The position numbers and the translations under genes were made by a program. The notes under the pieces were generated by a model. That model made no database searches. It was not told the origin of the DNA and saw nothing but the letters and a program-made list of their open reading frames with translations. Below are positions 18,717 through 56,466 of a stretch of DNA of 64,000 nucleotides, in pieces. The stretch lies in the NCBI GenBank assembly GCA_049512075.1, contig JBEKXL010000001.1:32001-96000 (forward strand), in the 5' to 3' direction. Source of the stretch: Candidatus Bathyarchaeia archaeon (GTDB lineage: Archaea; Thermoproteota; Bathyarchaeia; Bathyarchaeales; Bathycorpusculaceae). Each line of letters starts with the position of its first letter. Position 1 is the stretch's first letter.

Positions 18717-18846
18717 AATTCTCAGCCTGATTACTTCTACGTAGTCTAATAACTTCGTCAGGAATATATTAGTGCGCTGCAAGTTGATGACAAAACATCA
18801 ACTATAAATAAGGTTTGGAAACAACGGAAGCTTTGGAGATCGCAGG

Positions 18847-27176: not shown

Positions 27177-27356
27177 ACCACTCCAAAGGCTCTGCTGTCC
27201 CGCGTTTAGATAGCTTTCTCCAGTACGGGTCAATTGAAACTCTTTTGCGAACAGTAGACGTGCACCCAAAAGATTACAGATTAATCACGTGTCATCCTCT
27301 GCGGAGTCTTGGACTTAACGTGCAGAGGTGTCCGCATTAAAAAAATGAGGAGTGTG

Positions 27357-30324: not shown

Positions 30325-30330
30325 TACCGC

Positions 30331-33224: not shown

Positions 33225-33493
33225 TGTCTGTCGGCACACCTCGCTGTTAATACATGCTGCAAAAGACTTTAAAAAGGCTTATTGTATCGGATGAAACTTT
33301 CATTTATCTAACTCCGCGACTTTCATCCCCCTGAACATGCATGGATTGCAAAATCCTTTGCACAGAACCATAGACTGATGATTCTGCTGATGATTCTTTT
33401 CTGTGATACCAGTAGCGCAAGGAGAACAAGCTTTTAATAGTACATAGGAAAAAACAGTGTGAAAGAGTAAACATAAAACCGGAGGAAAAAAGT

Positions 33494-41780: not shown

Positions 41781-42827
41781 CTAGGATTTGCCGAGTTTCT
41801 TTGCTAGCTTAGCAAGCTCAGGGACTGTCTGCTCACCTTTGTCCCATACCTGTTTTCCGTCGAGCCACACAGACGTGTTCATGCAGATTCCGTCGGTGTG
41901 TGAAGGTGCCGAGATTGGTTTTCCGCCCGTCAGTATCTGGCCTACATAGCCGATTCCCCATTCGCTGACTCCCCAGACTCTCTCGTCCTCTAAGACGTTT
42001 CCCGTGAGTTTAGCGCCTGGATTGCAGCCGTAGCAAACGTGAGCCATGCTGCGCATCAGTGGATGGTTGAAACTCTTGAGCCAAGCATCGAAAACCATGG
42101 CATCTTGGCCACCGTCGATTTTATGTATCTTTCCTTCTTTGACGTGCAGCTTCACTGGTGACTTGCACAAGCCTAGCGGCGGGTTTATTGAACCATCGAA
42201 AACAATCGTGCCGTTTATCGACTCGAAAACGGGCGACCAGCCTATCTGACCTCCAAGCATGTGGGAACCAGGAGTATCAGCGTACCCTGTCTCAAGTGTT
42301 ATCGGTCTCCTGCGGTCGTTGTCGAATTCAACATCGGTTCCTGATGGCGTCGTCATTTTGACGTGTTTAGCAGCTTTAGTCATTTCCACCAGTTTTTCTT
42401 CATAGGCGGCTAGGGTTTTTACATCGACTCTGGCGATTGTTCTAACCATCATGTCCACGTTCATTCCGACGTAGCATGCATGTCTGAGCTTCTTGTTTGC
42501 TTCCATGGCGTTTGCGTATGGCGTTGAGTAGAAAATCCACTCATTGTTGAATTCGCACCAAGCGTCAGCGCACTTCAGAACTGCTTCAATCGCTTCTGCG
42601 GGCAAATCGGCGTCTGCGGCTTTGCCAACTCCTCGGGGTGAGGCGTTCCAAATTACTAGAGGCTTCGCTCCGATGGTAAAGGCAGCTGCAGCTGTGGCGT
42701 CGACGACGCGAGGATCGGATTCTGTGTCTGCAGAAACGACGAAAGTCTCTCCTGGTTTCAGTTTGAACCATTCTGAAACGAGCCTGTGTGCGGCTTTAGC
42801 TAACTCGTATTCGTAGTATTGAGGCAT
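41781..42827 (-). CDS. M29/AmpS-fold metalloenzyme, NicX-like His variant
   Basis: TPSGTD, NGTIVFDG, MAHVCYGCNPGA, EDERVWG and SHTDG motifs. Confidence 0.82.
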   Translation of the reverse strand: MPQYYEYELAKAAHRLVSEWFKLKPGETFVVSADTESDPRVVDATAAAAFTIGAKPLVIWNASPRGVGKAADADLPAEAIEAVLKCADAWCEFNNEWIFYSTPYANAMEANKKLRHACYVGMNVDMMVRTIARVDVKTLAAYEEKLVEMTKAAKHVKMTTPSGTDVEFDNDRRRPITLETGYADTPGSHMLGGQIGWSPVFESINGTIVFDGSINPPLGLCKSPVKLHVKEGKIHKIDGGQDAMVFDAWLKSFNHPLMRSMAHVCYGCNPGAKLTGNVLEDERVWGVSEWGIGYVGQILTGGKPISAPSHTDGICMNTSVWLDGKQVWDKGEQTVPELAKLAKKLGKS

Positions 42828-42942
42828 TCTTGTCACTTCCAGAAAAAAGCTATCTTTGTCGTTCAGCTTATAAAACTTCTCAAAAACCTTTTAGGCGCGC
42901 AAGCGACTCATCCTATCGCTATCTCTGAAAAAGAGGAATAAT

Positions 42943-43485
42943 ATGGATGTCTTTGAGACTATAAAGGGACGCAGAAGCGTCAGGAAATTCAAGTCGAAGG
43001 CAGTTGAGAGAGAGTTGACTGAGAAATTGCTGACCGCAGCTTGTTGGGCACCTTCAGGCGGGAATATTCAACCGTGGAAATTCATAGTGGTGGAAGATCG
43101 TACGACTCTTGAGATGGTTCGCAAGATCTCTCCGGGATATTTCGGCGAGACTCCTCTAGCGATACTTGTTTGCGCTGACAAGATGAGGGCATACAAAGTT
43201 GGCGGCGCGATGGGACGGGATTACCTTTCAATCGCGGATTGCGCAATGGCTACTGAAAACATTGTCCTGGCAGCGTACGCGCTGGGATTAGGAACATGCA
43301 TTGTCAAATCTTTCTCGCATGCGGCAATGAAGGAAATTCTTGAAATTCCGGAAGGCATCGAACCGGAGCTTCTGGTTGTGGTCGGATACCCTGACGCGCC
43401 TCCAGCTCCTCCACGTCGAATTCCTCTGAAAGAGAATACGTATCTCAACAAGTTCGGTCAGAGTTTTCAGCCTGCGGGGGCATAG
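42943..43485 (+). CDS. Nitroreductase family protein
   Basis: RRSVRKF, APSGGNIQPW, GLGTC and VGYP motifs. Confidence 0.93.
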   Translation: MDVFETIKGRRSVRKFKSKAVERELTEKLLTAACWAPSGGNIQPWKFIVVEDRTTLEMVRKISPGYFGETPLAILVCADKMRAYKVGGAMGRDYLSIADCAMATENIVLAAYALGLGTCIVKSFSHAAMKEILEIPEGIEPELLVVVGYPDAPPAPPRRIPLKENTYLNKFGQSFQPAGA

Positions 43486-43903: not shown

Positions 43904-44920
43904 ATGAAGCTTTCTAACCTCCTTACAATCGTTGACCTCCACACAGCAGGTGAGCCGTTCAGAATAGTGACAAGCGGATTTCCTACAATTCGTGGCAAAA
44001 CAATGAAGGAAAAAAACGCCTATGCAGAAAAGAACCTTGAAGATATGCGAAGAATGGTTCTCTATGAACCCCGAGGACGCAGTACAATGTGCGGAGCGTT
44101 CCTCTTGGAGCCTACAGTTGCAGAGGCGGATGCGGGGGTCATATTCATGGAACCAATAGGCCTCGTCCCGATGTGCGGACACGGATCGATTGCGATAGCC
44201 AAATACTTGGTTGAAACTGGACGAGTGAAAGTAACGGAACCCGTAACCAAAATCAAACTAGACACTCATGCAGGACTGGTCAGCCTATCAGTGAGCGTCA
44301 AAGATGGAAAGGTCGGAGAGATAACACTGAGAAATGTCGAATCTTTCTCCTACCTTCGCGACGCCATGGTCCGCACTGAAAGATTCGGAAAAGTCAAGGT
44401 TGACATTGCCTACGGTGGCAGCTTATACGCGATAGTTTCAGCCAAAGATGTCGGACTTGAGATTGTTCCTGATGAAGCTGGAAAACTGCTTGAATACGGT
44501 GAAATCCTCAGGAAATCGATACAAGAACAGATAGAGATGAAGCATCCCAAGGACGCCAGTCTAGTGAAGGTTCTGTACGTTCAGTTCACTGGGCCTCCGA
44601 CGCATCCGAAAGCGGACATGAAGAATGTCGTTGTCGTGGCACCTACAGGCCTAGATCGTTCGCCATGCGGCACCGGAACGTCTGCAAGAATGGCAGACCT
44701 CTTCGCCAAGGGAAAGATGAAAGTTGGAGATGAGCTCGTGCATGAAAGCCTCATCGGCACGTTGTTTCGAGGCAGAATAGTCGGCGAAACCAGCGTGGGG
44801 GAATACCCCGCGATAATTCCAGAAGTCGCGGGCAACGCATACATAACAGGTTTTCAACAACTCGTGGCCGAGCCGGACGATCCTTTGAAAAAAGGCTTCT
44901 TACTATCGGAAACTTCGTAG
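43904..44920 (+). CDS. Proline racemase / hydroxyproline 2-epimerase (two-Cys type)
   Basis: DLHTAGEP.R, EPRG, MCGH and DRSPCGTGTSA motifs. Confidence 0.92.
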   Translation: MKLSNLLTIVDLHTAGEPFRIVTSGFPTIRGKTMKEKNAYAEKNLEDMRRMVLYEPRGRSTMCGAFLLEPTVAEADAGVIFMEPIGLVPMCGHGSIAIAKYLVETGRVKVTEPVTKIKLDTHAGLVSLSVSVKDGKVGEITLRNVESFSYLRDAMVRTERFGKVKVDIAYGGSLYAIVSAKDVGLEIVPDEAGKLLEYGEILRKSIQEQIEMKHPKDASLVKVLYVQFTGPPTHPKADMKNVVVVAPTGLDRSPCGTGTSARMADLFAKGKMKVGDELVHESLIGTLFRGRIVGETSVGEYPAIIPEVAGNAYITGFQQLVAEPDDPLKKGFLLSETS

Positions 44921-45011
44921 CCTTGAACATTCTGATTCCCAGGATCGACACCGACCAAGGTTAAGTAGTGCCGATGGCTAGATTAATGTGAGTCTACGAG
45001 GTTGAGGGAAC

Positions 45012-46241
45012 ACGTTTCTTACGCGTGAGGAAGAGGCGATGCTTGATGGCGAGTATGGAGAAGGGTACGAAATCGCCATGTCCGTTCTGGTCAAACTTGG
45101 AGACATCTATGGCGCTGACAGGATGCTGAAGGTCGAAAACGTCCATATTGACGGTGCCGCCTACGGCTGGATCAATGATTCTGGCTTGGAGCTGATTGGG
45201 AAATTGGCCAGCTCAGGAGCGCGTTTTCGGGTTCCAGCGACGCTGAACCCTTCTTCAATCGACTTTGACATGTGGCAAGAGCTAAAGATACCTTCTCACG
45301 TTGCAAGGAAACAGTTGAGGCTGGCCAAGGCCCTGAAGAGAATGGGCGGAACACCAACATGGACTTGTGCTCCGTATCAATACGGTGCAGATCTCAGGTT
45401 TGGCCAGAAGGTGGCTTGGGGAGAATCCAACGCCGTCGGTTTTGCAAACACTGTCGTCGGCGCAAGAACTGAGAGATTGGGAGATCTTGCTGACGTCTGT
45501 GCTGCGGTTGCCGGAGAGTACCCAAATTTTGGGCTGTACCTGGACGAGAACAGGCGAGGACAGGTACTCTTCGAGCCTGACAGACTTGACGTGGATGCCT
45601 TCGATTCTACAGACTATGGCGTCCTAGGTTTCTTCGTTGGATCCATCGCTAAAGCAAGGGTTCCAGTGGTTTCAGGAATGCCAGAAAAAGCGACAACCGA
45701 CCAGTTGAAGTCGTTTTGTGCAGCTGCCGCAGTTGGCGGTTCAGTGGCTCTGTGTCACCTGTGCGGGATCACGCCTTGGGCAAAGACAGTGGCAGAGGCG
45801 TTTCGCGGTTCGAAACCTGAAGAAAAAATAATCATCGAGGCTGGCGAGCTTGATCAAGCAAGACAGAAGCTAAGCACTGCCAATGAGGAGCCGCCTGAAG
45901 TTATCTGCATCGGATGTCCGCACTGCTCAGTTCAGGAACTCGTGAAGGTCGCGCGCCTTATTAAGGGCAGGAGAGTGGAAGACAGCGTGAGGTTCCTGGT
46001 TTTCACGAGCAGAGCGGCAAAGACGTTAGCAAGTGAAATGGGGGCGGTTGAGACAATCGAGTCGTCTGGGGGTAGAGTGATTGCTGACACATGCTGGAAC
46101 TTCATTCCCTCTAAAGCTGAGACCTTGATGACTGACTCTGTGAAAATGGCCTGGACGTCGCTGGGCAAATTCACAAACGTTGCACTTGGCAGTATAGAAA
46201 AGTGCGTCGATGTTGCGGCCGGAACAATGCCTAGAGGATGA
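45012..46241 (+). CDS. Aconitase X large subunit (DUF521), probable cis-3-hydroxy-L-proline dehydratase; probable ACG start
   Basis: (M)FLTREEEAMLDG, HIDG, TLNP, TCAPY, WGESNAV.FAN, GCPH and DTC motifs. Confidence 0.88.
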   Translation, partial: TFLTREEEAMLDGEYGEGYEIAMSVLVKLGDIYGADRMLKVENVHIDGAAYGWINDSGLELIGKLASSGARFRVPATLNPSSIDFDMWQELKIPSHVARKQLRLAKALKRMGGTPTWTCAPYQYGADLRFGQKVAWGESNAVGFANTVVGARTERLGDLADVCAAVAGEYPNFGLYLDENRRGQVLFEPDRLDVDAFDSTDYGVLGFFVGSIAKARVPVVSGMPEKATTDQLKSFCAAAAVGGSVALCHLCGITPWAKTVAEAFRGSKPEEKIIIEAGELDQARQKLSTANEEPPEVICIGCPHCSVQELVKVARLIKGRRVEDSVRFLVFTSRAAKTLASEMGAVETIESSGGRVIADTCWNFIPSKAETLMTDSVKMAWTSLGKFTNVALGSIEKCVDVAAGTMPRG

Positions 46242-46711
46242 TCCGCGTGGGAAAAATCGTGATAAGATGCGTCCCGGTGTCGAAAGGCGTTTCAGAAGGA
46301 GAAGCTCTGGTAACGAGCCAGCCGATGTGTTTGTACGACTCGTTGGATCCTAAGTCTGGCCGCATCGTGAACAAGAGACATGAGCTGTATGGAGAATGTG
46401 TTTCTGGGAGAATTCTCTTCTTTCCCTACGGAATCGGCTCAAGCACGAGCGCCGCCACGATTCTTGAGGCCTCAAGATGTAAAAAAGCTCCAAACGCTAT
46501 AGTTAACCTAGAAACCGAGCCGATAATAGCTGTTGGCGCATTGTTGGCCGAGAGGCTTTATGGAAGGATAATTCCGATTGTTCACAGGCCAGAAATAGAC
46601 CCGGCAGAAGTGATTAAGCATCATTCTGTGAGAGTTAACGCCGACGTGGGCCTGATTGAAGTATTAGGACATGGTCGAGATGCAGCGCACGTTAAAGCGA
46701 ATAATGCATGA
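46238..46711 (+). CDS. Aconitase X swivel small subunit (DUF126)
   Basis: GEALV, DP.SG.I...HEL.G, G.GSS, AP.AI and E.IIAVGA motifs. Confidence 0.88.
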   Translation: MIRVGKIVIRCVPVSKGVSEGEALVTSQPMCLYDSLDPKSGRIVNKRHELYGECVSGRILFFPYGIGSSTSAATILEASRCKKAPNAIVNLETEPIIAVGALLAERLYGRIIPIVHRPEIDPAEVIKHHSVRVNADVGLIEVLGHGRDAAHVKANNA

Positions 46712-46783
46712 AATTGCAAAATCGGCGCACAACGTTTTTAAGAACTCTCGAGCTAGGTTTAATTAACAGGCGTTCTGGAAAAG

Positions 46784-47701
46784 GTGGAAAAGACCATCCA
46801 AAAAGGCATTGTTTTTGAAGTAAAAAGGTATGCCACGGACGATGGACCAGGCATACGTACGACCGTATTCTTCAAGGGATGCCCTCTGCGTTGCTGGTGG
46901 TGCCACAACCCCGAGGGCAAAAATTCGAAACCCGAGTTGATGTACAAACGGAACAGATGCAAAGGCTCGGGCGAATGTGTAAAAAACTGTCCAAAGAATG
47001 CAATCTCGAAAGGCGCTCAGTACGTGTCCATCAACAGAAAACTCTGCAACTTATGTGGAAAGTGTGCCCTAGCCTGTCCAAGCGATGCTCTAGTGCTAGT
47101 CGGCAGAGCAGCAAGAGCGGATGAGATGCTGAAGGAGATAGAAAAGGACGTGACCTTTTATGATGAGTCCGGCGGAGGCGTCACGTTCTCTGGTGGGGAA
47201 CCCCTCATGCAACCCGATTTCTTGGAAGCTCTACTTGAAGGTTGTAAGGAGAGAAACATTCGCACAGCCTTGGACACGTGTGGATATGCACCATGCGAAA
47301 CGGTGGATAGAATAAAGGACAAAGTTGATCTCTTTTTGTATGACATCAAGAGCATGGACGACCGGACGCATAGAAAGTACACGGGAGTGTCAAACAAACT
47401 CATCATTCAGAATTTCAAGAGATTAGCAGAGAATGGAAGCAGCATTTCGGTTCGCTTCCCCGTCATTCCGGGCGTCAACGACAACGCGGAAAACGTCACC
47501 AGGACAGGCGAGTTTGCACTTTCACTTGGCGTGAAGCAGGTGTGTCTTCTTCCTTATCACAGAGCAGGGATTGAAAAGTACAGAAGCCTGGACAAGACTT
47601 ACAGACTCGAGCATCTTCAATCTCCCTCAGACGAAAAAATGCAAATGATCAAGGAAAAACTTATCACACTCGGGTTAGACGTGAGAATAGGAGGAGGGTA
47701 A
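46784..47701 (+). CDS. Glycyl-radical enzyme activating enzyme (radical SAM with ferredoxin insert)
   Basis: DGPGIRT.VFFKGCPLRCWWCHNPEG, GGVTFSGGEP and LPYH motifs. Confidence 0.95.
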   Translation: MEKTIQKGIVFEVKRYATDDGPGIRTTVFFKGCPLRCWWCHNPEGKNSKPELMYKRNRCKGSGECVKNCPKNAISKGAQYVSINRKLCNLCGKCALACPSDALVLVGRAARADEMLKEIEKDVTFYDESGGGVTFSGGEPLMQPDFLEALLEGCKERNIRTALDTCGYAPCETVDRIKDKVDLFLYDIKSMDDRTHRKYTGVSNKLIIQNFKRLAENGSSISVRFPVIPGVNDNAENVTRTGEFALSLGVKQVCLLPYHRAGIEKYRSLDKTYRLEHLQSPSDEKMQMIKEKLITLGLDVRIGGG

Positions 47702-47702
47702 G

Positions 47703-50069
47703 ATGAAAGACAGGATTAGAAAGCTGAGAGAACGCAGCGTCAGCACTAAACCGTACATCACGCCGGAAAGGGCCGTTCTAATAACGGAGTTTTGCGCTGG
47801 CGAAGGGGCTAGTCAGTCAGCATCTACACCCGTGAAAAGAGCCCTTGCCCTGAAGTACTTGCTTGAACACAAGCAGATATTCATCGATGACGGTGAGCTC
47901 ATCGTTGGCGAGAGAGGACCTGCTCCGAAGGCCGTTCCCACTTACCCGGAGATATGTTGCCACAGCCTTCAAGATCTTGAAATTCTTAATTCGAGGAAGA
48001 AAACACCCTTTGCGGTGGATAAAGAAACGAGGAAAATATACGAAGACAATATCATACCTTTCTGGAAGGGTAAATCAATAAGGGAAATGATTTTTGGTCA
48101 AATGTCCAAAGAGTGGAAGCTCGCCTACGAAGCAGGAGTGTTCACAGAGTTTCTGGAGCAGAGAGCCCCAGGTCACACGGTTCTCGACGACAAAATCTAC
48201 CGGAAAGGCATGCTTGACTTCAAAAAGGACATTAAGAAGAGCATGCGAAGCCTCGATTTTCTGAATGATCCTGAAGCACTCAAGAAGATGGAAGAACTCA
48301 AGGCCATGGAAATCGCTGCAGACGCCTTGATCCGCTACGCCGAGCGACACGCCGGGAAGGCCAGAGAGATGGCAAAGAAGGAGAAAGACCCGACGAGAAG
48401 AAAAGAGCTTGAAAAGATAGCGGATGTCTGCTCTCACGTTCCGGCTAACGCGCCTCGCGACTTCTGGGAGGCTCTGCAGTACTATTGGTTTGTTCATCTA
48501 GGAGTCATATCGGAACTCAACCCGTGGGATTCATTCAACCCTGGCAGGCTTGATCAGCACCTGTATCCGTTCTACAAACGGGGCTTGGAGCAAGGCACGT
48601 TAACGAAAGAAGAAGCCAAAGAGCTTCTGGAATTGTTCTGGATAAAATTCAACAATCAACCGGCGCCGCCCAAGGTCGGCGTTACAGCGGAGGAGAGCAG
48701 CACCTACAATGATTTTGCTCTGATAAACGCGGGCGGCGTGAAAGCCGACGGCTCGGACGGCGTGAACGAGCTCTCGTACCTGATACTGGACGTTGTGGAG
48801 GAAATGAGGCTGATCCAGCCTGGCTCCATGGTTCAGATCAGCAAGAAAACTCCTGACAGTTTTGTGAAGAAGGCCGTGGAGGTCATAAGAGAAGGCTTCG
48901 GACAGCCCTCAGTCTTCAACACGGACGCAATAATTCAAGAACTCCTGCGGCAGGGAAAATCGATAGAGGACGCGAGAAACGGAGGAGCGAGCGGATGTGT
49001 GGAGGCGGGGGCTTTTGGAAAAGAAAGCTACATCCTCACTGGATACTTCAACCTCACTAAAATCTTAGAGATCGTCTTGAACAACGGTGTAGACCCAAGG
49101 ACGAAAAGAAAGATTGGCCTTGAAACCGGGGACCCTTCAGACTTCAGTTCTTTCGATGAACTCATCAACGCGTATGAGAAGCAACTAAACTACTTTGTCG
49201 ACGTCAAAATCAAGGGTAACAACATAATTGAGAGGCTGTACGCCGAGCATCTTCCAACGCCCTTCCTGTCACTCCTAATAAGCGATTGCGTGCAGAAAGG
49301 AAAAGACTACAGCGATGGCGGCGCCAGGTATAACACCAACTACATCCAGGGCGTAGGACTCGGAACGATAACTGATTCTTTGACAGCGATTAAACACAAG
49401 GTCTTTGACGAGAAAAACGTTAGGATGAAAGAGCTAGTCAATGCATTGCATGCCAACTTTGATGCGAACGAGAACCTTCGCCAAGTGCTTTTGAATAAGA
49501 CGCCTAAGTACGGCAACGACGACGATTATGCGGATGACATCATGAGAACTGTCTTTGAGATTTACTATCGTGCAGTGGATGGGAGGCCGAACACCAAGGG
49601 AGGCTATCACAGGATAAATCTTCTGCCGACCACGGTTCACGTTTACTTCGGGAAAGTGTTAGGCGCAACACCTGATGGGAGAAAAGCAGGTGAACCCGTT
49701 TCTGAGGGTGTGTCACCCGTCCAAGGAGCAGACAGGAAAGGTCCCACGGCAGTGATAAAGTCGGTTTCTAAGATAGATCATGTCAGAACAGGCGGGACTC
49801 TTCTCAACCAGAAATTTGCGCCAGAGCTGTTGGAAGACGAGCAGGGTATGGACAAGCTGGGCCACCTTATACGCACGTACTTCAAGCTTGACGGTCACCA
49901 CATCCAGTTTAACGTCATAAACGCGGAGACCTTGCGAGACGCACAGAAACATCCCGAGAAATACACGGATCTCCTAGTGAGAGTTGCAGGGTACAGCGAC
50001 TACTTCGTTGATTTGAGCACTGAACTTCAGAATGAGATTATTAAGAGAACGGAGCACAAATCGTTCTGA
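47703..50069 (+). CDS. hypD: trans-4-hydroxy-L-proline dehydratase (glycyl radical enzyme)
   Basis: EQRAPGHT, NPWDSF, EESSTYNDF, SGCVE, GYFN, LPTTVH and RVAGYS match the HypD active-site set. Confidence 0.92.
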   Translation: MKDRIRKLRERSVSTKPYITPERAVLITEFCAGEGASQSASTPVKRALALKYLLEHKQIFIDDGELIVGERGPAPKAVPTYPEICCHSLQDLEILNSRKKTPFAVDKETRKIYEDNIIPFWKGKSIREMIFGQMSKEWKLAYEAGVFTEFLEQRAPGHTVLDDKIYRKGMLDFKKDIKKSMRSLDFLNDPEALKKMEELKAMEIAADALIRYAERHAGKAREMAKKEKDPTRRKELEKIADVCSHVPANAPRDFWEALQYYWFVHLGVISELNPWDSFNPGRLDQHLYPFYKRGLEQGTLTKEEAKELLELFWIKFNNQPAPPKVGVTAEESSTYNDFALINAGGVKADGSDGVNELSYLILDVVEEMRLIQPGSMVQISKKTPDSFVKKAVEVIREGFGQPSVFNTDAIIQELLRQGKSIEDARNGGASGCVEAGAFGKESYILTGYFNLTKILEIVLNNGVDPRTKRKIGLETGDPSDFSSFDELINAYEKQLNYFVDVKIKGNNIIERLYAEHLPTPFLSLLISDCVQKGKDYSDGGARYNTNYIQGVGLGTITDSLTAIKHKVFDEKNVRMKELVNALHANFDANENLRQVLLNKTPKYGNDDDYADDIMRTVFEIYYRAVDGRPNTKGGYHRINLLPTTVHVYFGKVLGATPDGRKAGEPVSEGVSPVQGADRKGPTAVIKSVSKIDHVRTGGTLLNQKFAPELLEDEQGMDKLGHLIRTYFKLDGHHIQFNVINAETLRDAQKHPEKYTDLLVRVAGYSDYFVDLSTELQNEIIKRTEHKSF

Positions 50070-50109
50070 ACGGCAAGCCCAGAACGGCGCTAGCTAGATT
50101 GACAAGCGG

Positions 50110-51093
50110 CTAAATCTCGATTTCTTTTCCGATTCCTTCTTTCTTTGCTTTATCATATGCCAGTTTTGCTACGGCGGCATCTTCGAGGGCTAAGCCCACG
50201 GCTTTCCAACACGTTATTTCGGAGTCAGACATTCTTCCAGGTTTTTCGCCGCCGACTATTTCTTGAAGTTCAGCGTAGATATCATCCTGTGAAATTATTC
50301 CCTTCTTTATTGGGACAATAAGGTCTCCAGTTTCAGCAAGTGCGCCCTCTTTGGTGTCGACGACGATTTTTGCTTTCTTGACGGTTTTATCGTCCAGTTC
50401 TCCTCCCTCAGGTCCGACTACTCCGATGGAGTTTATGTGCGCACCCATCTTTATCCAATCTCCGTCCAACACTGCAACCTTCGACGTTGTGGCTAAAACT
50501 ATTACATCGGAGTTTTCAACGCACTGTTTGCTGGTTTGCACAGGCTTAACTGTTAGGCTCAGTTCTCGTGAGACACTTTCGGCAAATTCCTCCGCCCTCT
50601 TAGGTAAAATGTCGTACACCTTTATTCTTTGAATGTTTTCAAGAACCTCGCACAGCCCCCGAACCTGAGCTCTTGCCTGACCGCCAGTACCTATGACACC
50701 GATTAAGCTGGAGTCTTTTCGTGCAAGGTACTTGGTGGCAACCGCGCTTGCGGCACCCGTCCTAGTGGCGGTAATATACGCTCCATCCATCAGAGAAAGC
50801 AGTTTGCCGTTTTCTGGATGGTTCAAGAGAATTGAGGCTAGTATCGTTGGTAAACCATGCTTCAGGTTCCCCTCGTACTGAGTGACTATCTTGATTGCTA
50901 AGGATCCCGTGCGACTGAGGTATGCGGGCATATAATAAACGAAGCCTTCATGTTTGTCGACGCTGATGATCACGCGCTTCGGAACTACCGCCTTTCCTTC
51001 GTACAACTCGAGGAAGGCTTTCTCTACCACTTGGATAGCTTCCCTCATGCTGACCAAGGATTCAACATCGCTTCTGCTAAGAAACAGGACCAT
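50110..51093 (-). CDS. Ornithine cyclodeaminase/mu-crystallin family (probable pyrroline-2-carboxylate reductase or archaeal AlaDH)
   Basis: MPAY, IT..RTGAASAVA..YLAR, GTGGQA, HINSIG and GLALEDAA motifs. Confidence 0.88.
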   Translation of the reverse strand: MVLFLSRSDVESLVSMREAIQVVEKAFLELYEGKAVVPKRVIISVDKHEGFVYYMPAYLSRTGSLAIKIVTQYEGNLKHGLPTILASILLNHPENGKLLSLMDGAYITATRTGAASAVATKYLARKDSSLIGVIGTGGQARAQVRGLCEVLENIQRIKVYDILPKRAEEFAESVSRELSLTVKPVQTSKQCVENSDVIVLATTSKVAVLDGDWIKMGAHINSIGVVGPEGGELDDKTVKKAKIVVDTKEGALAETGDLIVPIKKGIISQDDIYAELQEIVGGEKPGRMSDSEITCWKAVGLALEDAAVAKLAYDKAKKEGIGKEIEI

Positions 51094-51212: not shown

Positions 51213-52094
51213 TTAAGCGGATTGTGGGCTGGGGCAGGAGCGGTTTGTAGCAAGATTGGTTAAGTATACGCCTCCAAGGGTGAGCCCTGAGCCCAGAAGT
51301 AATTCGAGGTTGAAGGGCTCTTTGAGAAATATCCATCCGAATAGGAGGGCGACTGCGGGAACGAGCAGGGCGGAGCTTGAAAGAGTTGTTGCTTCTTCAT
51401 CTCTTAGCAGATGAAGCCAGAGTATGTTGCCGATACCCAACGCGCCCGCAGCTGAAAAGAGAATTAGTGCAGCGTACTGCGGACTCATAGGAAACGCAAG
51501 ACTGTTCATACCTAAACTTAGAGTGATGAAGAGAACTGAACCGATGGCCAATTGCAGGAAGACTCCTATGAAAGGATCTGCGTGACATAGAAACTTCTTA
51601 TAGTAGACAACCGAGATTCCCCAGAAGAGAGCAGATAAGATCAGGATTAGAGTTGACCCGAGAGTGAAAGAGCCTGTTTTGTTGAGGAAGAGGATGGCGA
51701 CTCCGGTGAACCCTATGGCAGCTCCTAGTATCTTGCTGGCTGTGATTTTCTCTTTTAGGAATGGTGCTGCTAGGCACAGGACGAAGAGTGGTTGAGTGTA
51801 AAGGATTACCGCACTGATGCCTGAGCTCCCGCCAGCAAGCCCGAAGATCTGTCCTGCGTTTACCGCGGTATAGATGAGACCGTAGACTGTCAGTCCGCCC
51901 AGAGTTCCCAGATCTCGGGGCAATCTCTTGCGGAGTATGAGAAAAACTGGAAGGAGAACAGCAACGGAAATCACGAATCGGTGCAGAAGCAGCGTTGAAG
52001 GCGAAACGGAATTCAAAGCTATCTTCATCACAGAATAGTTCGATCCCCAAAGAACGACTAAAGCTATGAAAAGCGGCACGTTATGCAACTTCAG
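51213..52094 (-). CDS. EamA/DMT family transporter (start CTG 52094 or TTG 52088)
   Basis: LWGSN, P..L..HRF, TQP.F and LKE motifs; about 10 TM helices. Confidence 0.88.
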   Translation of the reverse strand: MKLHNVPLFIALVVLWGSNYSVMKIALNSVSPSTLLLHRFVISVAVLLPVFLILRKRLPRDLGTLGGLTVYGLIYTAVNAGQIFGLAGGSSGISAVILYTQPLFVLCLAAPFLKEKITASKILGAAIGFTGVAILFLNKTGSFTLGSTLILILSALFWGISVVYYKKFLCHADPFIGVFLQLAIGSVLFITLSLGMNSLAFPMSPQYAALILFSAAGALGIGNILWLHLLRDEEATTLSSSALLVPAVALLFGWIFLKEPFNLELLLGSGLTLGGVYLTNLATNRSCPSPQSA

Positions 52095-52316
52095 ACAGCC
52101 TTGCCTCCCAGCACGGATGTCTTCTAAAATGCACTGTAATATAAAAATCACATGGCAAAGTCCATCGTGGCACAATTCTGGATTCAGCGCGTTACAAAGA
52201 TATTGACGCGCAGTTACAAGCTCAGGTCTGAACTGATTCTTCTCAATTGGAGAAGGATGTGATTACGAGTTCAAATTCCGATGAAATCGTTATTTGTGCG
52301 ACAGAAGAGGGCACTC

Positions 52317-52682
52317 TCAGTCCGTTCTCTTTTGTTTCTTTTTGTAGCGTCTTCGTATTTTTTCTGCAAGCTTGCCGTCCTCCACTATTAAGGCACCCTG
52401 ATAGCCACAGTTAAGGCATTTCCAGATGGAAGGGCGATAGAAGATGAGAAAGTTGATGTTGGTGGAACCGCATTTTGGACAGAACTTTATTCTGCTCATG
52501 ATTTCTTCTTGTTCTTTTAATTTAACTACAGACTTTTTGAGGCTCCACTTCTCTTTCAATATGTTGCCGAACTCGGTGAAATTTAACCCTTTAGCTTCCT
52601 CCCCACACAGCGGACAATGCTGCCCCCGCTCGAGCTGCTTATCATACACACACTTAGGATTTGGGCAAGTCCATGATGGCAT
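52317..52682 (-). CDS. Small protein with two Zn-ribbon modules
   Basis: CPNPKC..CPLCG and FCPKCGS..WKCLNCGY motifs. Confidence 0.75.
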   Translation of the reverse strand: MPSWTCPNPKCVYDKQLERGQHCPLCGEEAKGLNFTEFGNILKEKWSLKKSVVKLKEQEEIMSRIKFCPKCGSTNINFLIFYRPSIWKCLNCGYQGALIVEDGKLAEKIRRRYKKKQKRTD

Positions 52683-52728
52683 GCTAGCGCCTCATCAAAG
52701 ACAGACCGATCATGAAAGATAAAACTTT

Positions 52729-53085
52729 TTATGGGATCAACGCACGCGCTTTCCGACAGAACAAGCCGAGCGCTGTCATCAATGCTTTACCTGTGTCTCG
52801 TTTGGCGTAGTGCGTGAAAGTGAATTTGAGTTCTTCCAAGACCTGCTGGTCAGTCCACTGTTCGAAGAAGCGTCGGCTGAAACATGTGTCATATTTCCAG
52901 CCGTGTTTGGCGTTCGCCTGCAATTTCGTCATTCTGAGCATCAACCTGCTCAGGCGACAGTTGCAGCACGTGTCGGCCCACCAAAGCTCGCCGCCGAGTA
53001 AGTGTTTTGCTGTCCATGTGGTGTGGTAGAGGAAGTCGTTGACAACTTCGAGAAACTCGTCCTGCGTCGGCGCGCACGATAATCG
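52729..53085 (-). pseudogene. Degenerate C-terminal fragment of an aminoglycoside 6-adenylyltransferase (AadK-like) family gene
   Basis: PTQDEF..VVNDF.YH..WTAK.L..GELWWA, YDT.F.RRFFEQW and F.HY motifs; N-terminal nucleotidyltransferase domain absent. Confidence 0.6.
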
Positions 53086-53149
53086 CGTGGGCTCGGACAA
53101 AAGCTTTATAGACTCTTGATTGGCGTTGGAGTCACCGCCGGGAAAAGCA

Positions 53150-54442
53150 ATGGCTGAGTATGATGTTGTCATCGTGGGGAGTGGAATTCTTGGCTTGTCG
53201 ACCGCTTACCACATAAAGAATGCGCATCCTAAAGCGGAGATCTTGGTTATAGACAAGTTGAGGTCTGCTGGTCAGGGCAACACAGCTCGGAGCGCGGCTG
53301 CTTTCCGCTGCATATTCTCGTCACGAACAAACTATGCTCTTGCTGATTCCTCCGTCGAATTCTACAGGCATTTGCAGGAAGATTTGAGCGTGGATCTCAA
53401 GCTGCAATGGCTGGGTTATCTTTGGCTCATGACCGAAGAAGACTACAGGGAGATTCCTCCAATTTTCAGGGATTTGGCCATCAAGCGCGATCTGAAATAC
53501 ATTGAGTACGAAGGCAAAGAACTGGCCCAGAGATTGTGCGTGCGGATAGACCTGAAAAAAGACGAAGAAGCACAGTCGATGGGTTTGGAGAATATTTTCG
53601 GAGGCATCCTAATCCCCAAAGCGGGCGTCATAAACGATGTCAGCTCCTTGGCCAACTTCTATGAAACCGAGTTCTTAAGACTCGGCGGGAAAATCCAGTA
53701 CGGAGTAGAGGCCAAGAGCTTGGTCGCTGAACCTCGCCAACCTTTGGGCATTCCGGGTGAACCCTATTTTTGGCAGACCGCAAGGGTCGCAGGGGTAAGC
53801 ACTGATAAAGGTGTTATCAGGGCAAAAAAGACCATTTGGGCGGCTGGCGCTTGGGCATCACATATCTTGGATCGCGTGGGGATTGAGTGTTACATTAAGC
53901 CGAAGAAAAGACAGTTCTTCGCCATATCGGCCAAGAGCGGTGGCCTGCAAGAACTGTTGTTCACTAAGGGGTTTAATCTAGTTGGCTGTTTGCCCTTCAC
54001 CATTCTGCCAAGGCTCAGAGTGTACATTCGGCCATTTTCCAAAGAAGGAACCTATTGGGTTGGCTACGCTGACGATTTCCCGAGAGCCTTCAAACTTGAG
54101 GAAGACCCGCAGCCTGAAAAAAGTTTCTATGAATATGGCATTTATCAAGTCCTGACGAAATACTTTCCACAGTTTAAGAATGTCCGTGCATCTTCTGCTT
54201 TTGCAGGCTTGTACGAAGTCAACACCCTTGACGGCCACCCAGTGATTTTTGAAGAGAATGATTTGATGGTGGTGGGCGGCGCCAGTGGAAGCGGAATCAC
54301 AAAAGCAGACGCTATAGGAAGAATCGCTGAAGCCTTATACAGTTACAAAGAGTATGCATGTTTTTACGGTGACAAGAAGTTCAAAGTCAGTGACCTAGGC
54401 CTCGAAAAAAGATATGTGGAGCCCGAGAAACTAGTACTCTAG
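53150..54442 (+). CDS. FAD-dependent oxidoreductase, DAO/sarcosine oxidase-proline dehydrogenase beta family
   Basis: IVGSGILG...AY, GNT.RSAA, AAGAW, AGLY and GASGSGI motifs. Confidence 0.88.
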   Translation: MAEYDVVIVGSGILGLSTAYHIKNAHPKAEILVIDKLRSAGQGNTARSAAAFRCIFSSRTNYALADSSVEFYRHLQEDLSVDLKLQWLGYLWLMTEEDYREIPPIFRDLAIKRDLKYIEYEGKELAQRLCVRIDLKKDEEAQSMGLENIFGGILIPKAGVINDVSSLANFYETEFLRLGGKIQYGVEAKSLVAEPRQPLGIPGEPYFWQTARVAGVSTDKGVIRAKKTIWAAGAWASHILDRVGIECYIKPKKRQFFAISAKSGGLQELLFTKGFNLVGCLPFTILPRLRVYIRPFSKEGTYWVGYADDFPRAFKLEEDPQPEKSFYEYGIYQVLTKYFPQFKNVRASSAFAGLYEVNTLDGHPVIFEENDLMVVGGASGSGITKADAIGRIAEALYSYKEYACFYGDKKFKVSDLGLEKRYVEPEKLVL

Positions 54443-54494
54443 CGCGAGAGTGCGCTTCATGCAACACGAACAAGGATGGAAAAAAGGGAAAAAG

Positions 54495-55631
54495 ATGAAA
54501 ACAAACAAACCAACCACTTATTTTTGGTCAGGAAACGAGGCTTGCGTTGAGGCGGCGATAATTGCCGGATGCCGATTCTTCGCGGGTTACCCGATATCGC
54601 CTTCGAACGAGATACCCGAAGGCCTTTCAGAACGCTTGCCAAAAGTTGATGGAATATTCATGCAGATGGAAGACGAGCTGGCTTCCATAGGCGCGGTTAT
54701 GGGTGCAAGCTGGGCGGGAAAAAAGGCCATGACCGCTACTTCGGGGCCCGGTTTCAGCCTCATGCAGGAAACCATAGGCTGGGGATTCATGACTGAAACA
54801 CCCTGCGTAATAGTTGACGTTCAAAGAGTGGGACCGGGCACGGGACAAGCAACCAAATGTGCACAGGGAGACGTTATGCAGGCACGCTGGGGAACGCACG
54901 GCGACTACGCGGCCGTTGCACTGTCGCCGAACTCGGTTCAGGAAATGTTTGAGCTCACGATAAGAGCCTTCAACCTAGCTGAAAAGTATCGCACGCCGGT
55001 CATTCTTCTGGCAGACGAGACCATAGCCCACGTCAGAGAACAGATAATGGTTCCGCTACTGAAGAGCATAGATATTGTCAATCGCAAAAAACCAGAGATA
55101 GGAGAAACAGAGTTCTTCGGTCTGGAGGAAGTCGCACCGATGCCAGCCGTGGGCGAAGGCTTCAACGTGGCCGTGACGGCTTCAACGCACGACGAACGTG
55201 GAGTCCGATTCACCCAGGACGCCGCGGTGCATAGAAGGATGCTGGAGAGCCTTAACGCAAAGATAGACAATCACGCGGACGACATTGTGGAGGTGGAGAG
55301 CCACAATGTTGACGACTGCAGGGTAGGCATAGTCTCCTTCGGCTGCACGTCCCGTGCGGTCTACGAGGCTGTTGAAAGGGCAGAAGCGTTGGGAATCAAA
55401 ACGGGCTACGTCCGCCTGAAAACGCTGTGGCCTTTCCCAGACAAAGCCGTCCGAAGGCTAGCCAAATCTGCTGAGAGAATTATCGTTCCAGAAATGAACC
55501 TGGGACAAGTTGCCAGAGAAGTTCAGAGAGTAGCAGGCAAAACGGAAATTGTGAAGTTGAACAAGATCGGAGGGGGCGAGCTTATCACGCCTGAGGAAGT
55601 ATTTGACAAAATCGTTGGAGGAGGAAAATGA
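54495..55631 (+). CDS. korA: 2-oxoacid:ferredoxin oxidoreductase alpha subunit
   Basis: GYPISP, QMEDE, TATSGPG, QRVGP.TG and PEMNLGQ motifs. Confidence 0.92.
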   Translation: MKTNKPTTYFWSGNEACVEAAIIAGCRFFAGYPISPSNEIPEGLSERLPKVDGIFMQMEDELASIGAVMGASWAGKKAMTATSGPGFSLMQETIGWGFMTETPCVIVDVQRVGPGTGQATKCAQGDVMQARWGTHGDYAAVALSPNSVQEMFELTIRAFNLAEKYRTPVILLADETIAHVREQIMVPLLKSIDIVNRKKPEIGETEFFGLEEVAPMPAVGEGFNVAVTASTHDERGVRFTQDAAVHRRMLESLNAKIDNHADDIVEVESHNVDDCRVGIVSFGCTSRAVYEAVERAEALGIKTGYVRLKTLWPFPDKAVRRLAKSAERIIVPEMNLGQVAREVQRVAGKTEIVKLNKIGGGELITPEEVFDKIVGGGK

Positions 55632-55632
55632 A

Positions 55633-56466
55633 ATGTCTGGGGTGTTCTCGTCTCGCAAGTACATGAGGGATTTGAAGCTGCCGTTCTGTCCGGGCTGCGG
55701 GTTGTTTTCGCTCGGCGACGCTTTCCTGAGGGCTGTGCATGAGCTGGGCCATGAAGACTTGAGCGGGTTTTGTTTCGCCAGTGGAATAGGCTGTTCTTCT
55801 TGGATTCCTTCGCCGTATTTTCTCGCAGATTCAGTTCACACCCTTCACGGCAGAAGTATACCAGTTGCGACAAGCATCAAGCTCGTGCGTCCGGACCTAA
55901 GCGTAGTCGTGTTCGGCGGGGACGGAGACATCGTGGGCATCGGATTGAGCCACTTTGTACACGCTGCGAGACGCAACACGGACATACTCGTCATAATGGG
56001 CAACAACATGGTTTACGGCATGACAGGCGGGCAAGTAGCGCCTACAACACCGTTCAAGACTAGGACAACAACCACTCCCTACGGAAGCTTTGAACACCCA
56101 TTGGATGCTGCAAGACTCGCAGTCGGCGCTGGAGCAGCATATTCTGCGCGTTGGACTACTGCACACTTGAAAGAATTGAAAGAATCAATCAAGAGCGCGC
56201 TCCAGATGCCGGGCTTCAAGTTCATCGAGGTTGTAACTCACTGTTATACAGCGTACGGCAGAAGAGCCGGCTTCAAGGACACAGGAGAGATGCTAAAGTA
56301 CTACAGAGAAAACGCTGTCGCAGCACAGCAGGCTGAGAAAATGAGCGAAGAAGAGCTTGAGGGGAAAATAGTTATCGGAGAATTCGTGCGGAGAAAGCGT
56401 CCGACACTCGTGGAGACGGTTTACGCCATGATTGAGGGGGCAAAGGCAAGTGGCGAACAAGACTGA
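55633..56466 (+). CDS. korB: 2-oxoacid:ferredoxin oxidoreductase beta subunit
   Basis: FCPGCG, SGIGCS, HTLHGR, GGDGD and YGMTGGQ.APTT motifs. Confidence 0.93.
   Translation: MSGVFSSRKYMRDLKLPFCPGCGLFSLGDAFLRAVHELGHEDLSGFCFASGIGCSSWIPSPYFLADSVHTLHGRSIPVATSIKLVRPDLSVVVFGGDGDIVGIGLSHFVHAARRNTDILVIMGNNMVYGMTGGQVAPTTPFKTRTTTTPYGSFEHPLDAARLAVGAGAAYSARWTTAHLKELKESIKSALQMPGFKFIEVVTHCYTAYGRRAGFKDTGEMLKYYRENAVAAQQAEKMSEEELEGKIVIGEFVRRKRPTLVETVYAMIEGAKASGEQD

Follow-up and report, generated by a model that had tools for sequence, protein, structure and literature searches.

Hydroxyproline (Hyp) can be dehydrated by enzymes of quite different kinds, and the closest described relatives of the system discussed here come from both bacteria and archaea. 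The glycyl radical enzyme (GRE) HypD converts trans-4-hydroxy-L-proline (trans-4-L-Hyp) to delta1-pyrroline-5-carboxylate (P5C) and is coupled to P5C reductase in Clostridia; it also occurs in the genomes of several archaea, where it forms a clade of its own (Huang 2018, PMC6219649). The residues specific to HypD are His160, Asp278, Ser334, Asp339, Phe340, Tyr450 and Thr645, plus Phe152, Arg156, Trp277 and Lys326 (PMC7077986). In Thermococcus litoralis, a proline/trans-3-Hyp cluster contains the genes for the dehydratase TlLhpH, the delta1-pyrroline-2-carboxylate (Pyr2C) reductase TlLhpI, TlProR and an L-proline dehydrogenase (L-ProDH; PMC4141209, PMC4364671), and putative pyruvate formate-lyase (PFL) genes were noted in 2014 to flank archaeal Pyr2C-reductase clusters (PMC4141209). 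The role of AcnX as a cis-3-Hyp dehydratase in bacteria has also been published; Watanabe 2021 (PMC8184944) lists only the type IIb enzyme for archaea, describes the functions of subclasses IIc-IIf as unknown, and calls for an intermediate form in discussing the divergence of the two AcnX functions. Relatives of several of these enzymes stand together in the gene cluster described here, which lies around positions 43,904 to 51,093 of a 64,000-nucleotide stretch of DNA (the window) from a Candidatus Bathyarchaeia archaeon (assembly GCA_049512075.1, contig JBEKXL010000001.1, positions 32,001 to 96,000).

The interpretation that we favor, and hold to be moderately probable, is that the locus is a conserved Bathyarchaeial cluster for the oxygen-free use of Hyp, built from two modules, with all of the substrate assignments predicted from sequence. 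In one module, an activase and HypD would dehydrate trans-4-L-Hyp to P5C by glycyl-radical chemistry. In the other, AcnX, an Fe-S dehydratase, would remove water from a 3-Hyp isomer to give Pyr2C, a reductase of the ornithine cyclodeaminase (OCD)/mu-crystallin family would convert Pyr2C to L-proline, and a ProR-like enzyme would epimerize C2, feeding otherwise unusable isomers to either dehydratase. The proline may then be re-oxidized to P5C/glutamate semialdehyde by a neighboring DAO-family flavoprotein. P5C would be converted to glutamate by the single aldehyde dehydrogenase of the genome, glutamate to 2-oxoglutarate by one of two glutamate dehydrogenases, and 2-oxoglutarate to succinyl-CoA by an adjacent 2-oxoacid:ferredoxin oxidoreductase (OFOR).

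Bathyarchaeia are among the most abundant archaea of anoxic sediments and soils, and their diet has largely been inferred. The combination of HypD with a 3-Hyp-type module would point to Hyp-rich proteins, such as collagen and the cell-wall glycoproteins of plants and algae, as a class of substrate.

The cluster and its host

A preliminary description of the window had named a run of genes for a ProR-like enzyme, a two-subunit AcnX, a GRE activase and HypD, with a convergent OCD-family gene, in an archaeon, and every one of these genes was found as described in the open reading frame (ORF) list and in Pfam and NCBIfam scans (Table 1). The host genome, G000 in what follows, consists of 2.73 Mb in 86 contigs, with a completeness of 99.76% and a contamination of 4.19. 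Genes for an archaeal histone and ribosomal protein S25e lie within the window, and those for aIF-2 and the thermosome are present in the genome. The closest HypD record (95% identity) is from a Candidatus Bathyarchaeia archaeon and comes from the same contig as genome G002. A compositional island at the locus was ruled out, since GC content is even (0.45-0.52) across the window. The juxtaposition of the cluster genes is not a matter of chance, because it recurs in genome G003 and, with AcnX identities of 64-91%, in contigs from metagenomes.

Comparisons were made with a class sample of 401 genomes (400 besides the window's own), with 79 loci from a metagenome scan, and with the best 80 of at least 570 HypD relatives in species-representative genomes. 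Of the metagenome loci, 23 besides the window's own record carry an AcnX of the window clade at 60% identity or more, and their neighboring genes were called at a 45% identity cut-off. The metagenome contigs and genomes include close kin, and the counts given below overstate independence.

HypD and its activase

The GRE is a true HypD by family membership, and the dehydration of trans-4-L-Hyp to P5C is its predicted activity. The HypD model NF043068 matches with 1335.5 bits against a cut-off of 1100, and the next family, TIGR01774, reaches 713.7 bits; similarly, the HypD structure of Clostridioides difficile (6vxc) matches with 1092 bits and the next GRE, a glycerol dehydratase, with 582. When the active-site residues listed in Backman 2020 (PMC7077986) were mapped through the alignment to 6vxc, all 15 were found to be kept (F150, R154, H158, W275, D276, K324, S332, D337, F338, C432, V433, E434, Y448, T643 and G763). 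These include the CXE motif of the Cys loop, Cys432-Val433-Glu434, and Gly763 of the glycyl radical loop, where the RVxG motif reads RVAGYS. No other PFL-like or GRE gene was found in the genome.

The cognate radical-SAM activase lies directly upstream, its gene ending 1 base before hypD. It has a CX3CX2C motif at residues 33-40 and a ferredoxin-like CX2CX2CX3C motif at residue 88, scores slightly below the cut-off of the HypD-specific activase model NF043069 (401 against 425 bits) and passes the more general TIGR02494 (359.8 against 174).

A FastTree phylogeny of 83 sequences (78 from the best 80 loci, the window, G003, G021, G039 and, as outgroups, two GREs with 42% and 35% identity) leads to the same placement. 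The Bathyarchaeial HypDs (G000, G002, G003, G021, L079 and L081) form one clade, with SH-like (Shimodaira-Hasegawa-type) support of 0.99, among bacterial HypDs, and the window protein is far from GREs of 35-45% identity. Three other archaeal HypDs, from Nanoarchaeota, Atabeyarchaeum and G039, are placed elsewhere in the tree. Model score, residues and tree all agree with the earlier view that the GRE belongs inside the HypD clade.

The AcnX pair

The genome contains three AcnX pairs, and their landmark residues were read from phmmer alignments to TkAcnX and AtAcnX and from paralog alignments, using the positions given in Watanabe 2021 (PMC8184944). In what follows, (S) and (L) denote the small and large subunits. 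The catalytic residues of AtAcnX, the base and those on the cluster side, are kept in the window pair (Ser70 as Ser68(S), Glu292/Ser293 as Glu129/Ser130, Lys530 as Lys369), and so are both contacts to the substrate nitrogen (Thr72 as Thr70(S), Asp203 as Asp38(L)). The window small subunit reads Ser68-Ser69-Thr70 at the positions of Ser70-Cys71-Thr72 in AtAcnX, Cys71 being replaced by Ser69(S), and Tyr33 at the position of Trp35.

The metal site follows a different pattern. The cluster ligands Cys110, Cys293 and Cys352 correspond to the three-Cys set of TkAcnX (Cys110, Cys283, Cys342), and the pair has neither the type I set (Cys273, Cys508, Cys510) nor the type IIa set, which consists of the first two only: Cys110 and Cys352 stand at the positions of those two, and a third Cys, Cys293, at that of TkAcnX Cys283. 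The window AcnX probably carries a [4Fe-4S] cluster.

The substrate positions of type IIb enzymes are changed. The phosphate and substrate residues Gly48-Val49-Ser50, Asn53, Ala47, Thr63(S), Val64(S), Leu27(S) and Tyr365 (PMC8184944) are represented in the window pair by Gly39-Ala40-Ala41, Trp44, Asp38, Ser69(S), Thr70(S), Tyr33(S) and Thr373. At the same positions one of the two paralogs, L002, reads Gly-Val-Ser, Thr, Ser, Thr, Val, Leu and Tyr, and it carries the set that TkAcnX uses for mevalonate 5-phosphate, with Leu27(S), Ser-Thr-Val(S) and Gly-Val-Ser. The L002 small subunit is also the only one that passes PRK03955 (184.6 bits against a cut-off of 163; the window small subunit has 101). 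By this signature it would be L002, and not the window pair, that fills the role of phosphomevalonate dehydratase. The cis-3-Hyp dehydratase model NF051439 (cut-off 700) is not reached by the window subunits (305 bits for the large, 77 for the small); it describes a single-chain fused enzyme and is unfair to split forms, and the large subunits of the two paralogs score 244 and 248. The third pair, L003 (G000:C4:26670-30848), has neither a cis-3-Hyp nor a phosphomevalonate signature (Ala-Ala-Ser-Ser, E-S-S, Ser-Ser-Val) and adjoins genes for a D-2-hydroxyacid dehydrogenase and a class I/II aminotransferase.

A protein search recovered AcnX relatives of 42-91% identity in records from Bathyarchaeia, Korarchaeota, Thorarchaeota, Chloroflexota and Acidobacteria. 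The window protein was aligned with 119 homologs (112 matches from the search, 380-469 residues long, and 7 sequences obtained by translating loci) and its two paralogs. Both the Asp and the E-S-N motif at the AtAcnX positions are present in 101 of the 102 homologs with at least 43% identity, the exception (P0065) having the Asp with E-S-S, and neither feature is present in the two paralogs. In a quick maximum-likelihood tree (54 rows, SH-aLRT support only, midpoint rooted), the window clade has support of 100 and is nested within the Asp clade (95), beside groups that keep Tyr534; the paralogs fall outside as long-branch outgroups, and these two long branches join each other.

By these comparisons the window AcnX belongs to an archaeal clade within the cis-3-Hyp dehydratase lineage and not to type IIb, with its isomer specificity a prediction only. 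The suspicion that it might group with the phosphomevalonate dehydratases and be the only genomic copy is not borne out on either count by the tree, the landmarks or the number of pairs. The earlier proposal of a cis-3-L-Hyp dehydratase holds as far as lineage is concerned, and fails in so far as it implied the standard bacterial enzyme, given three altered pocket residues (discussed below) and a different third cluster ligand. The clade lies outside the archaeal scheme of Watanabe 2021, compared here for types I, IIa and IIb.

The ProR-like enzyme and the OCD homolog

The ProR-like enzyme, the single member of its family in the genome, has the catalytic pair Cys94 (in MCGHG) and Cys258 (in DRSPCGTG). 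Because a Cys/Thr pair marks the trans-3-Hyp dehydratases, the Cys/Cys pair identifies a racemase or epimerase. It remains below every NCBIfam equivalog cut-off (392 against 556 bits for ProR, NF010576; 340 against 540 for the trans-3-L-Hyp dehydratase; 312 against 376 for the 4-Hyp epimerase, NF010578). Three ligand sites tell proline from Hyp in this family; sites 1/4/5 read Phe/Leu/Phe in ProR, Phe/Leu/Trp in TlProR, and Ser or Val/His/Cys or Tyr in the 4-Hyp epimerase HypE (Watanabe 2015, PMC4364671). According to alignments to AsProR and 6j7c, the latter taken as TlProR on account of its Trp at site 5, the window enzyme has Cys66/Tyr228/Val248. It lacks the Phe at sites 1 and 5 of proline racemase proper; it resembles HypE in the small residues at these sites and lacks the site-4 His, and HypE structures match at only about 150 bits. 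The loss of both Phe residues and the gain of a polar Tyr suggest a hydroxylated substrate. In the class sample, ProR-family genes were found in 90 of the 401 genomes, and only that of G300 is close to the window copy. Many family f24 matches in this survey were flagged with one in-frame TAA or TAG, where the match probably overruns the end of the gene.

The OCD homolog matches 6t3e, deposited as a delta1-pyrroline-2-carboxylate reductase, with 389.5 bits and archaeal alanine dehydrogenase with 240. We take the 6t3e chain to be TlLhpI. The alignment shows that the TlLhpI features are kept, namely the Arg-Lys-Arg-Asp tetrad, the GxGxxA Rossmann motif and an Asp specific for NAD. Where the triad proposed for ornithine cyclization, E56-D228-K232, would stand, the window protein reads Tyr-Val-Gly and TlLhpI reads Leu-Val-Ala; both the reductase features and the triad are from Watanabe 2014 (PMC4141209). 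The bacterial Pyr2C reductase models of NCBIfam are not passed (248 against 322 bits). The protein is probably an NADH-dependent Pyr2C reductase, in line with the role first proposed for it, judging from the kept tetrad and the missing triad. A second, more distant gene of the family lies on contig C33.

Two separable modules

Comparison of genomes shows that the cluster consists of two separable modules, activase/HypD and ProR-like/AcnX/OCD. The full arrangement is present in G003, a genome of the same genus, as MFS transporter, luciferase-like (LLM) oxidoreductase, NicX-like protein, nitroreductase, ProR-like enzyme, both AcnX subunits, activase, HypD and OCD, followed by DAO and OFOR without the insert that separates them from OCD in the window. 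In G002, also of this genus, a 90-residue remnant of the AcnX small subunit (97% identical) is followed by activase and HypD, directly after an M24 prolidase. On the other flank, a DUF7347 helix-turn-helix regulator and an Opp transporter replace OCD and DAO, and OFOR again follows. About 27 kb corresponding to window positions 18800-46400, from the prolidase to the middle of the AcnX small subunit, are absent from G002 (L013/L060). The reciprocal case is G300, from another genus, in which nitroreductase, ProR (86%), AcnX large subunit (74%) and AcnX small subunit are directly followed by a convergent OCD (63%), with no activase or HypD between them; the only GRE of G300 is 45% identical to HypD and lies on a different contig. 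ProR-AcnX-OCD is likewise found without HypD at loci L174-L177, and activase-HypD without window-type AcnX in G002, G021 and G039.

Window-type AcnX is rare. Some AcnX is present in 345 of the 401 class genomes, and only 4 of the 400 others have a copy at least 49% identical to that of the window. Window-type AcnX and OCD occur together in G000, G003, G300 and G241, the first three of which also have the ProR; all three genes are missing from G002. G001, G002 and G004 contain only AcnX paralogs of 34-37% identity and OCD homologs of 34-38%, so that neither window-type AcnX nor window-type OCD was found in G001 and G004, where ProR was not searched for. Of the 15 metagenome loci that extend 1.1 kb or more upstream of AcnX, 12 have ProR on that side. 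Among the 17 that extend 1 kb or more downstream, activase follows in 8 (with HypD where the contig reaches that far), OCD in 10, and one or the other in 14. Across 64-91% AcnX identity, the activase/HypD insert recurs exactly between AcnX and OCD.

Seen from the side of HypD, the partnership is uncommon. The best 80 HypD loci, 5 of them archaeal, have the activase in 65 cases, an M24 peptidase within 10 kb in 29, a ProR-family gene in 8 and an OCD-family gene in 5, and in none of their flanks was an AcnX large subunit found (0 of 79 when G002's own locus is excluded; 62 of these extend 3 kb or more upstream, 64 as far downstream and 53 on both sides). The preliminary description had called the pairing of HypD with AcnX in an archaeon unusual: the pairing does stand out in this sample, whereas archaeal HypDs were already in print (PMC6219649). 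Seven of the 8 ProR-family genes are of the Cys/Thr trans-3-Hyp dehydratase type, and L093, L118 and L136 combine HypD with such a gene and an OCD homolog, so bacteria already join the 4-Hyp and 3-Hyp routes in one locus.

A few other loci deserve mention. Two AcnX pairs about 50% identical to that of the window and found in genomes of another family, L052 (G315) and L053 (G165), keep both Trp35 and Tyr534. Their neighbors are a prolidase and an MR/MLE enolase, plus either a Pro_dh fragment or a DAO/Fer2_4/Pyr_redox_2 trio, and the enolase has the enolase-type cis-3-Hyp dehydratase as its second-best NCBIfam match (170 bits, cut-off 500). The two loci look like another kind of archaeal (hydroxy)proline cluster. 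At G241:C13:18933-23593, a GRE only 44% identical to HypD, and so not a HypD, has at a distance of 1.3 kb an OCD-family gene that shares 41% identity with that of the window, which could be another pairing of a GRE with an imine reductase. Beside the HypD of G021, an Ldh_2 and a DAO protein were considered as Pyr2C reductase and D-imino-acid dehydrogenase and rejected, their best NCBIfam matches being sulfolactate dehydrogenase and L-2-hydroxyglutarate oxidase.

The fate of P5C and proline

The preliminary description noted that the window has no proC, which is correct and extends to the genome as a whole: a search of all of it (completeness as above) for PF14748 (P5C reductase) gave no match, and a control search matched 12 of 14 reference genomes. 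The best PF03807 match in the genome is an aspartate dehydrogenase. A genome search for PF01619 likewise found no PutA-type proline dehydrogenase. With no ProC and no PutA-type enzyme, proline is unsupported as the common end product, and the idea that both branches run toward proline loses its footing on the HypD side. The branches more likely meet at P5C and then glutamate, with the steps after P5C predicted from gene content.

The single aldehyde dehydrogenase gene lies on contig C23 (L017, G000:C23:12935-14317, minus strand). Its NCBIfam scores are 514 bits against a cut-off of 770 for 2-oxoglutarate (alpha-ketoglutaric) semialdehyde dehydrogenase and 431 against 648 for glutamate semialdehyde dehydrogenase. 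The Pfam match of this gene starts about 64 codons upstream of the first ATG, GTG or TTG in a 492-codon open frame, which may reflect an unusual start codon or a sequence error. Two glutamate dehydrogenase genes are present in the genome.

The DAO-family protein, a candidate proline dehydrogenase, is encoded directly beside OCD in G003, L165 and L167. Its best PDB matches (272 bits) are 3axb and 3vqr, titled "putative oxidoreductase"; we take these tentatively to be the Aeropyrum pernix dye-linked L-proline dehydrogenase. The NCBIfam scan and the Atlas feature search returned only generic names for the protein.

Flanking genes

Two genes upstream of the cluster are conserved neighbors (Table 1). 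The nitroreductase-family gene and the gene for the NicX-like protein P0127 are each found in 8 of the 9 window-clade loci with at least 3.3 kb upstream, and the former also in G003 and G300. P0127 gave no match in Pfam and NCBIfam scans. A profile built from 11 homologs matches NicX (7cn3) with an E-value of 4.5e-23, and the Atlas feature search gives NicX/Peptidase_M29 clusters (0.98). An AlphaFold2 model from an 11-row alignment was too poor for a fold search (mean pLDDT 57.5, below 50 in the C-terminal half). The LLM oxidoreductase was tried as the missing P5C reductase and rejected, since just 3 of the 23 window-clade loci have it.

The insert between OCD and DAO is absent from G003, L165 and L167 and present in metagenome locus L166. 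It includes a Zn-ribbon protein of 121 residues with weak matches to IS1595/TnpB-type zinc ribbons and the last 147 residues of a truncated ANT(6)-like nucleotidyltransferase, and looks like a mobile-element remnant. Further upstream, positions 9537-28067 encode an HdrA-like flavoprotein with CCG-domain partners, an acyl-CoA dehydrogenase with electron-transfer flavoprotein alpha and beta subunits, a class V aminotransferase, an M29-like peptidase and two Asp/Glu/hydantoin racemases (26463-27176 and 27357-28067), a neighborhood of amino-acid and peptide catabolism.

Table 1. Genes of the cluster and its surroundings, in window coordinates.
Feature	Position	Strand	Remarks
M24 prolidase-type peptidase (context)	17616..18782	-	Peptidase_M24 + Creatinase_N; about 25-27 kb upstream of cluster
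Opp/Dpp-type oligopeptide ABC transporter (context)	29353..35224	.	
MFS transporter	39219-40472	-	syntenic in G003; in 8/23 window-clade loci
F420-type luciferase-like (LLM) oxidoreductase	40657-41613	+	syntenic in G003; in 3/23 window-clade loci
NicX/M29-like metalloprotein (P0127), conserved neighbor	41781..42836	-	profile match to NicX 7cn3
Nitroreductase-family flavoprotein, conserved neighbor	42943..43485	+	PF00881 106.7 bits
ProR-superfamily Cys/Cys racemase/epimerase	43904..44920	+	ORF opens TTG 43895, probable ATG 43904; PF05544 399 bits
AcnX large (catalytic) subunit	45039..46241	+	PF04412 441.7 bits
AcnX small (swivel) subunit	46238..46711	+	PF01989 78.9 bits; 4-base overlap with large-subunit gene
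Radical-SAM GRE activase (HypD-AE)	46784..47701	+	NF043069 401 bits; TIGR02494 359.8 bits
trans-4-Hydroxy-L-proline dehydratase HypD (predicted activity)	47703..50069	+	NF043068 1335.5 bits; starts 1 base after activase
OCD/mu-crystallin family enzyme, convergent on HypD	50110..51093/51129	-	best PDB match 6t3e, 389.5 bits
Insert between OCD and DAO: EamA transporter, Zn-ribbon protein, truncated ANT(6)-like fragment	51213..53172	-	
DAO-family FAD oxidoreductase, candidate proline or D-imino-acid dehydrogenase	53120..54442	+	PF01266 152 bits
OFOR alpha, beta, gamma	54450..56983	+	NF006412 525.8 bits, cut-off 411; TPP_enzyme_C, POR domains

Alternative readings of the locus

Several observations weigh against a cluster for the use of both 4-Hyp and 3-Hyp. 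The AcnX pocket differs from that of proven cis-3-Hyp dehydratases at Trp35 (Tyr33(S)), Ile206 (Ala41) and Tyr534 (Thr373), and an alanine mutant at Tyr534 of AtAcnX is almost inactive (Watanabe 2021, PMC8184944); the position of Cys510 is Asn354. Relatives of 47-59% identity keep Tyr534, except for P0057 (Cys) and P0056 (Phe), and Trp35 is kept in G315 and G165, the two relatives whose small subunits were read. Because of the changes at these four positions, the substrate of the window AcnX may not be cis-3-L-Hyp, or any Hyp at all. The ProR-like enzyme departs from the specificity patterns of both ProR and HypE. The DAO gene is absent next to OCD in G300 and L174-L177, and its assignment as a proline dehydrogenase leans on a PDB chain titled only "putative oxidoreductase". 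The C23 aldehyde dehydrogenase is unlinked to the cluster and below all equivalog cut-offs. Finally, what is observed in metagenome contigs and in the genomes of close kin does not count as independent.

Some of these doubts are met by the suggestion that module ProR-like/AcnX/OCD acts on another cyclic imino acid, such as 3,4-dihydroxyproline, 3-hydroxypipecolate/pipecolate or D-proline, and stands beside HypD only through shared transport or regulation. With the three pocket changes the C4-C5 side becomes smaller or more polar, pipecolate and 4-Hyp isomers are also substrates of TlLhpI (PMC4141209), the functions of AcnX subclasses IIc-IIf are given as unknown in Watanabe 2021 (PMC8184944), and the module occurs without HypD. 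Both nitrogen contacts and the catalytic Ser/Glu/Lys are nevertheless kept, AcnX relatives adjoin prolidase or proline-type genes at the loci examined for neighbors, and the activase/HypD insert recurs exactly between AcnX and OCD over a wide range of AcnX identity; we regard this suggestion as unlikely. Also unlikely is the funneling of all 3- and 4-Hyp isomers, including D-epimers such as might come from aged sediment protein, to L-proline, with P5C reduced by some reductase other than ProC. HypD, AcnX, OCD and the Cys/Cys epimerase are all present as this would require, Clostridial HypD is coupled to a P5C reductase (PMC6219649), and the salvage of proline could be useful to a cell in which the glutamate route to proline is apparently missing (one aldehyde dehydrogenase, no ProC). 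The LLM oxidoreductase and the nitroreductase-family protein nearby could in principle reduce imines. The failure to find PF14748 in a nearly complete genome, the aspartate dehydrogenase as best PF03807 match, the scarcity of LLM genes among window-clade loci and the catabolic DAO and OFOR genes that adjoin the cluster all count against it. A bolder version of the Hyp cluster, which we think rather improbable, has the epimerase turn trans-3-L-Hyp, an isomer of collagen, into cis-3-D-Hyp and AcnX, as a new [4Fe-4S]-type Hyp dehydratase, dehydrate the latter, giving a complete oxygen-free route for both collagen hydroxyprolines that ends in glutamate rather than proline. If this were so, AcnX would act by anti-elimination, epimerase and AcnX would replace the bacterial Cys/Thr trans-3-Hyp dehydratase beside HypD, and the NicX-like and nitroreductase-like neighbors would supply further steps.

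The Cys/Cys enzyme and DAO might run the classical route in parallel to HypD, from trans-4-L-Hyp through cis-4-D-Hyp, pyrroline-4-hydroxy-2-carboxylate and 2-oxoglutarate semialdehyde to 2-oxoglutarate. Such an epimerase is present, DAO adjoins OCD in G003, L165 and L167 with OFOR next door, and the sole aldehyde dehydrogenase has alpha-ketoglutaric semialdehyde dehydrogenase as its best match (514 bits); this score is below the cut-off of 770, however, and a Pfam scan of 63 window ORFs gave no family recognized as of the deaminase type. Models for D-amino-acid and D-proline dehydrogenases match only the FAD-binding N-terminus of DAO (30-33 bits), DAO is not conserved with the cluster, and the classical route is on the whole improbable. 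More improbable still is a true ornithine cyclodeaminase that makes proline within a proline/ornithine interconversion unit. The genome lacks ProC, and many archaea are said to make proline via OCD (PMC4141209), but the triad positions of the OCD homolog read Tyr-Val-Gly and a second OCD-family gene is available on C33. Hardly credible, finally, is an AcnX pair that serves the archaeal mevalonate pathway as its phosphomevalonate dehydratase, with no connection to Hyp. The large subunit does have TkAcnX as its best PDB match (221 bits, against 194 for AtAcnX) and keeps all three TkAcnX Cys ligands; against this stand the replacements Ala47 to Asp, Val49/Ser50 to Ala/Ala, Asn53 to Trp, Leu27(S) to Tyr and Val64(S) to Thr, the paralog L002 with the TkAcnX set and the only small subunit to pass PRK03955, and the rarity of the window type in a class where most genomes sampled have some AcnX.

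Relation to known systems

Much of what a two-module Hyp cluster would use is already known: HypD, including archaeal HypD; archaeal ProR/OCD clusters with their unrecognized flanking "PFL" genes; and bacterial AcnX as a cis-3-Hyp dehydratase. What appears to be new is an archaeal AcnX clade that is not of type IIb and whose landmarks are mixed, the conserved association of this clade with a ProR-like enzyme of the Cys/Cys kind, a reductase of the OCD type and NicX-like and nitroreductase-like proteins, and the recurrent insertion of activase and HypD between AcnX and OCD. A text search of the literature gave no paper with both AcnX and GRE/HypD terms among the matches listed, and none was found for hydroxyproline together with Bathyarchaeia. 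The AcnX clade mixes the nitrogen contacts of the [2Fe-2S] cis-3-Hyp dehydratases with the three-Cys set of the [4Fe-4S] phosphomevalonate dehydratases, an intermediate of the sort sought in Watanabe 2021, and the cluster offers five to seven proteins amenable to expression and assay.

The resemblance to HypD and HypD-AE of C. difficile (6vxc) lies in the strength of the match, the complete set of active-site residues and the activase directly upstream. In contrast to C. difficile, the host is an archaeon, proC is neither adjacent nor present in the genome, the gene is embedded between AcnX and OCD, and the fate of P5C is likely oxidation rather than a Stickland-type reduction. The T. litoralis cluster shares the archaeal host, the OCD-type Pyr2C reductase and a Cys/Cys ProR-like enzyme; here the ProR family has a single copy, an AcnX pair stands in place of a Cys/Thr trans-3-Hyp dehydratase, and the ProR-like enzyme has Cys/Tyr/Val where TlProR has Phe/Leu/Trp at sites 1/4/5.

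The AcnX pair has likenesses on two sides. With the type I and IIa cis-3-Hyp dehydratases (AtAcnX, 7cnp; P. aeruginosa LhpI; A. brasilense) it shares the lineage (Asp203, E-S-N), the catalytic residues and a genomic link to a Pyr2C reductase, whereas its host is archaeal and its three Cys ligands are neither the [2Fe-2S] set with Cys510 nor the two-Cys set of type IIa. With the type IIb phosphomevalonate dehydratases (TkAcnX, 7cnr; ApAcnX) it shares the two-subunit build, the three-Cys ligand set and the archaeal host, whereas the substrate-specific residues are not kept. The bacterial HypD loci L093, L118 and L136 likewise join 4-Hyp and 3-Hyp routes under anoxic conditions, often with an M24 peptidase; where they use a single Cys/Thr dehydratase, the Bathyarchaeial cluster uses a Cys/Cys enzyme and AcnX instead.

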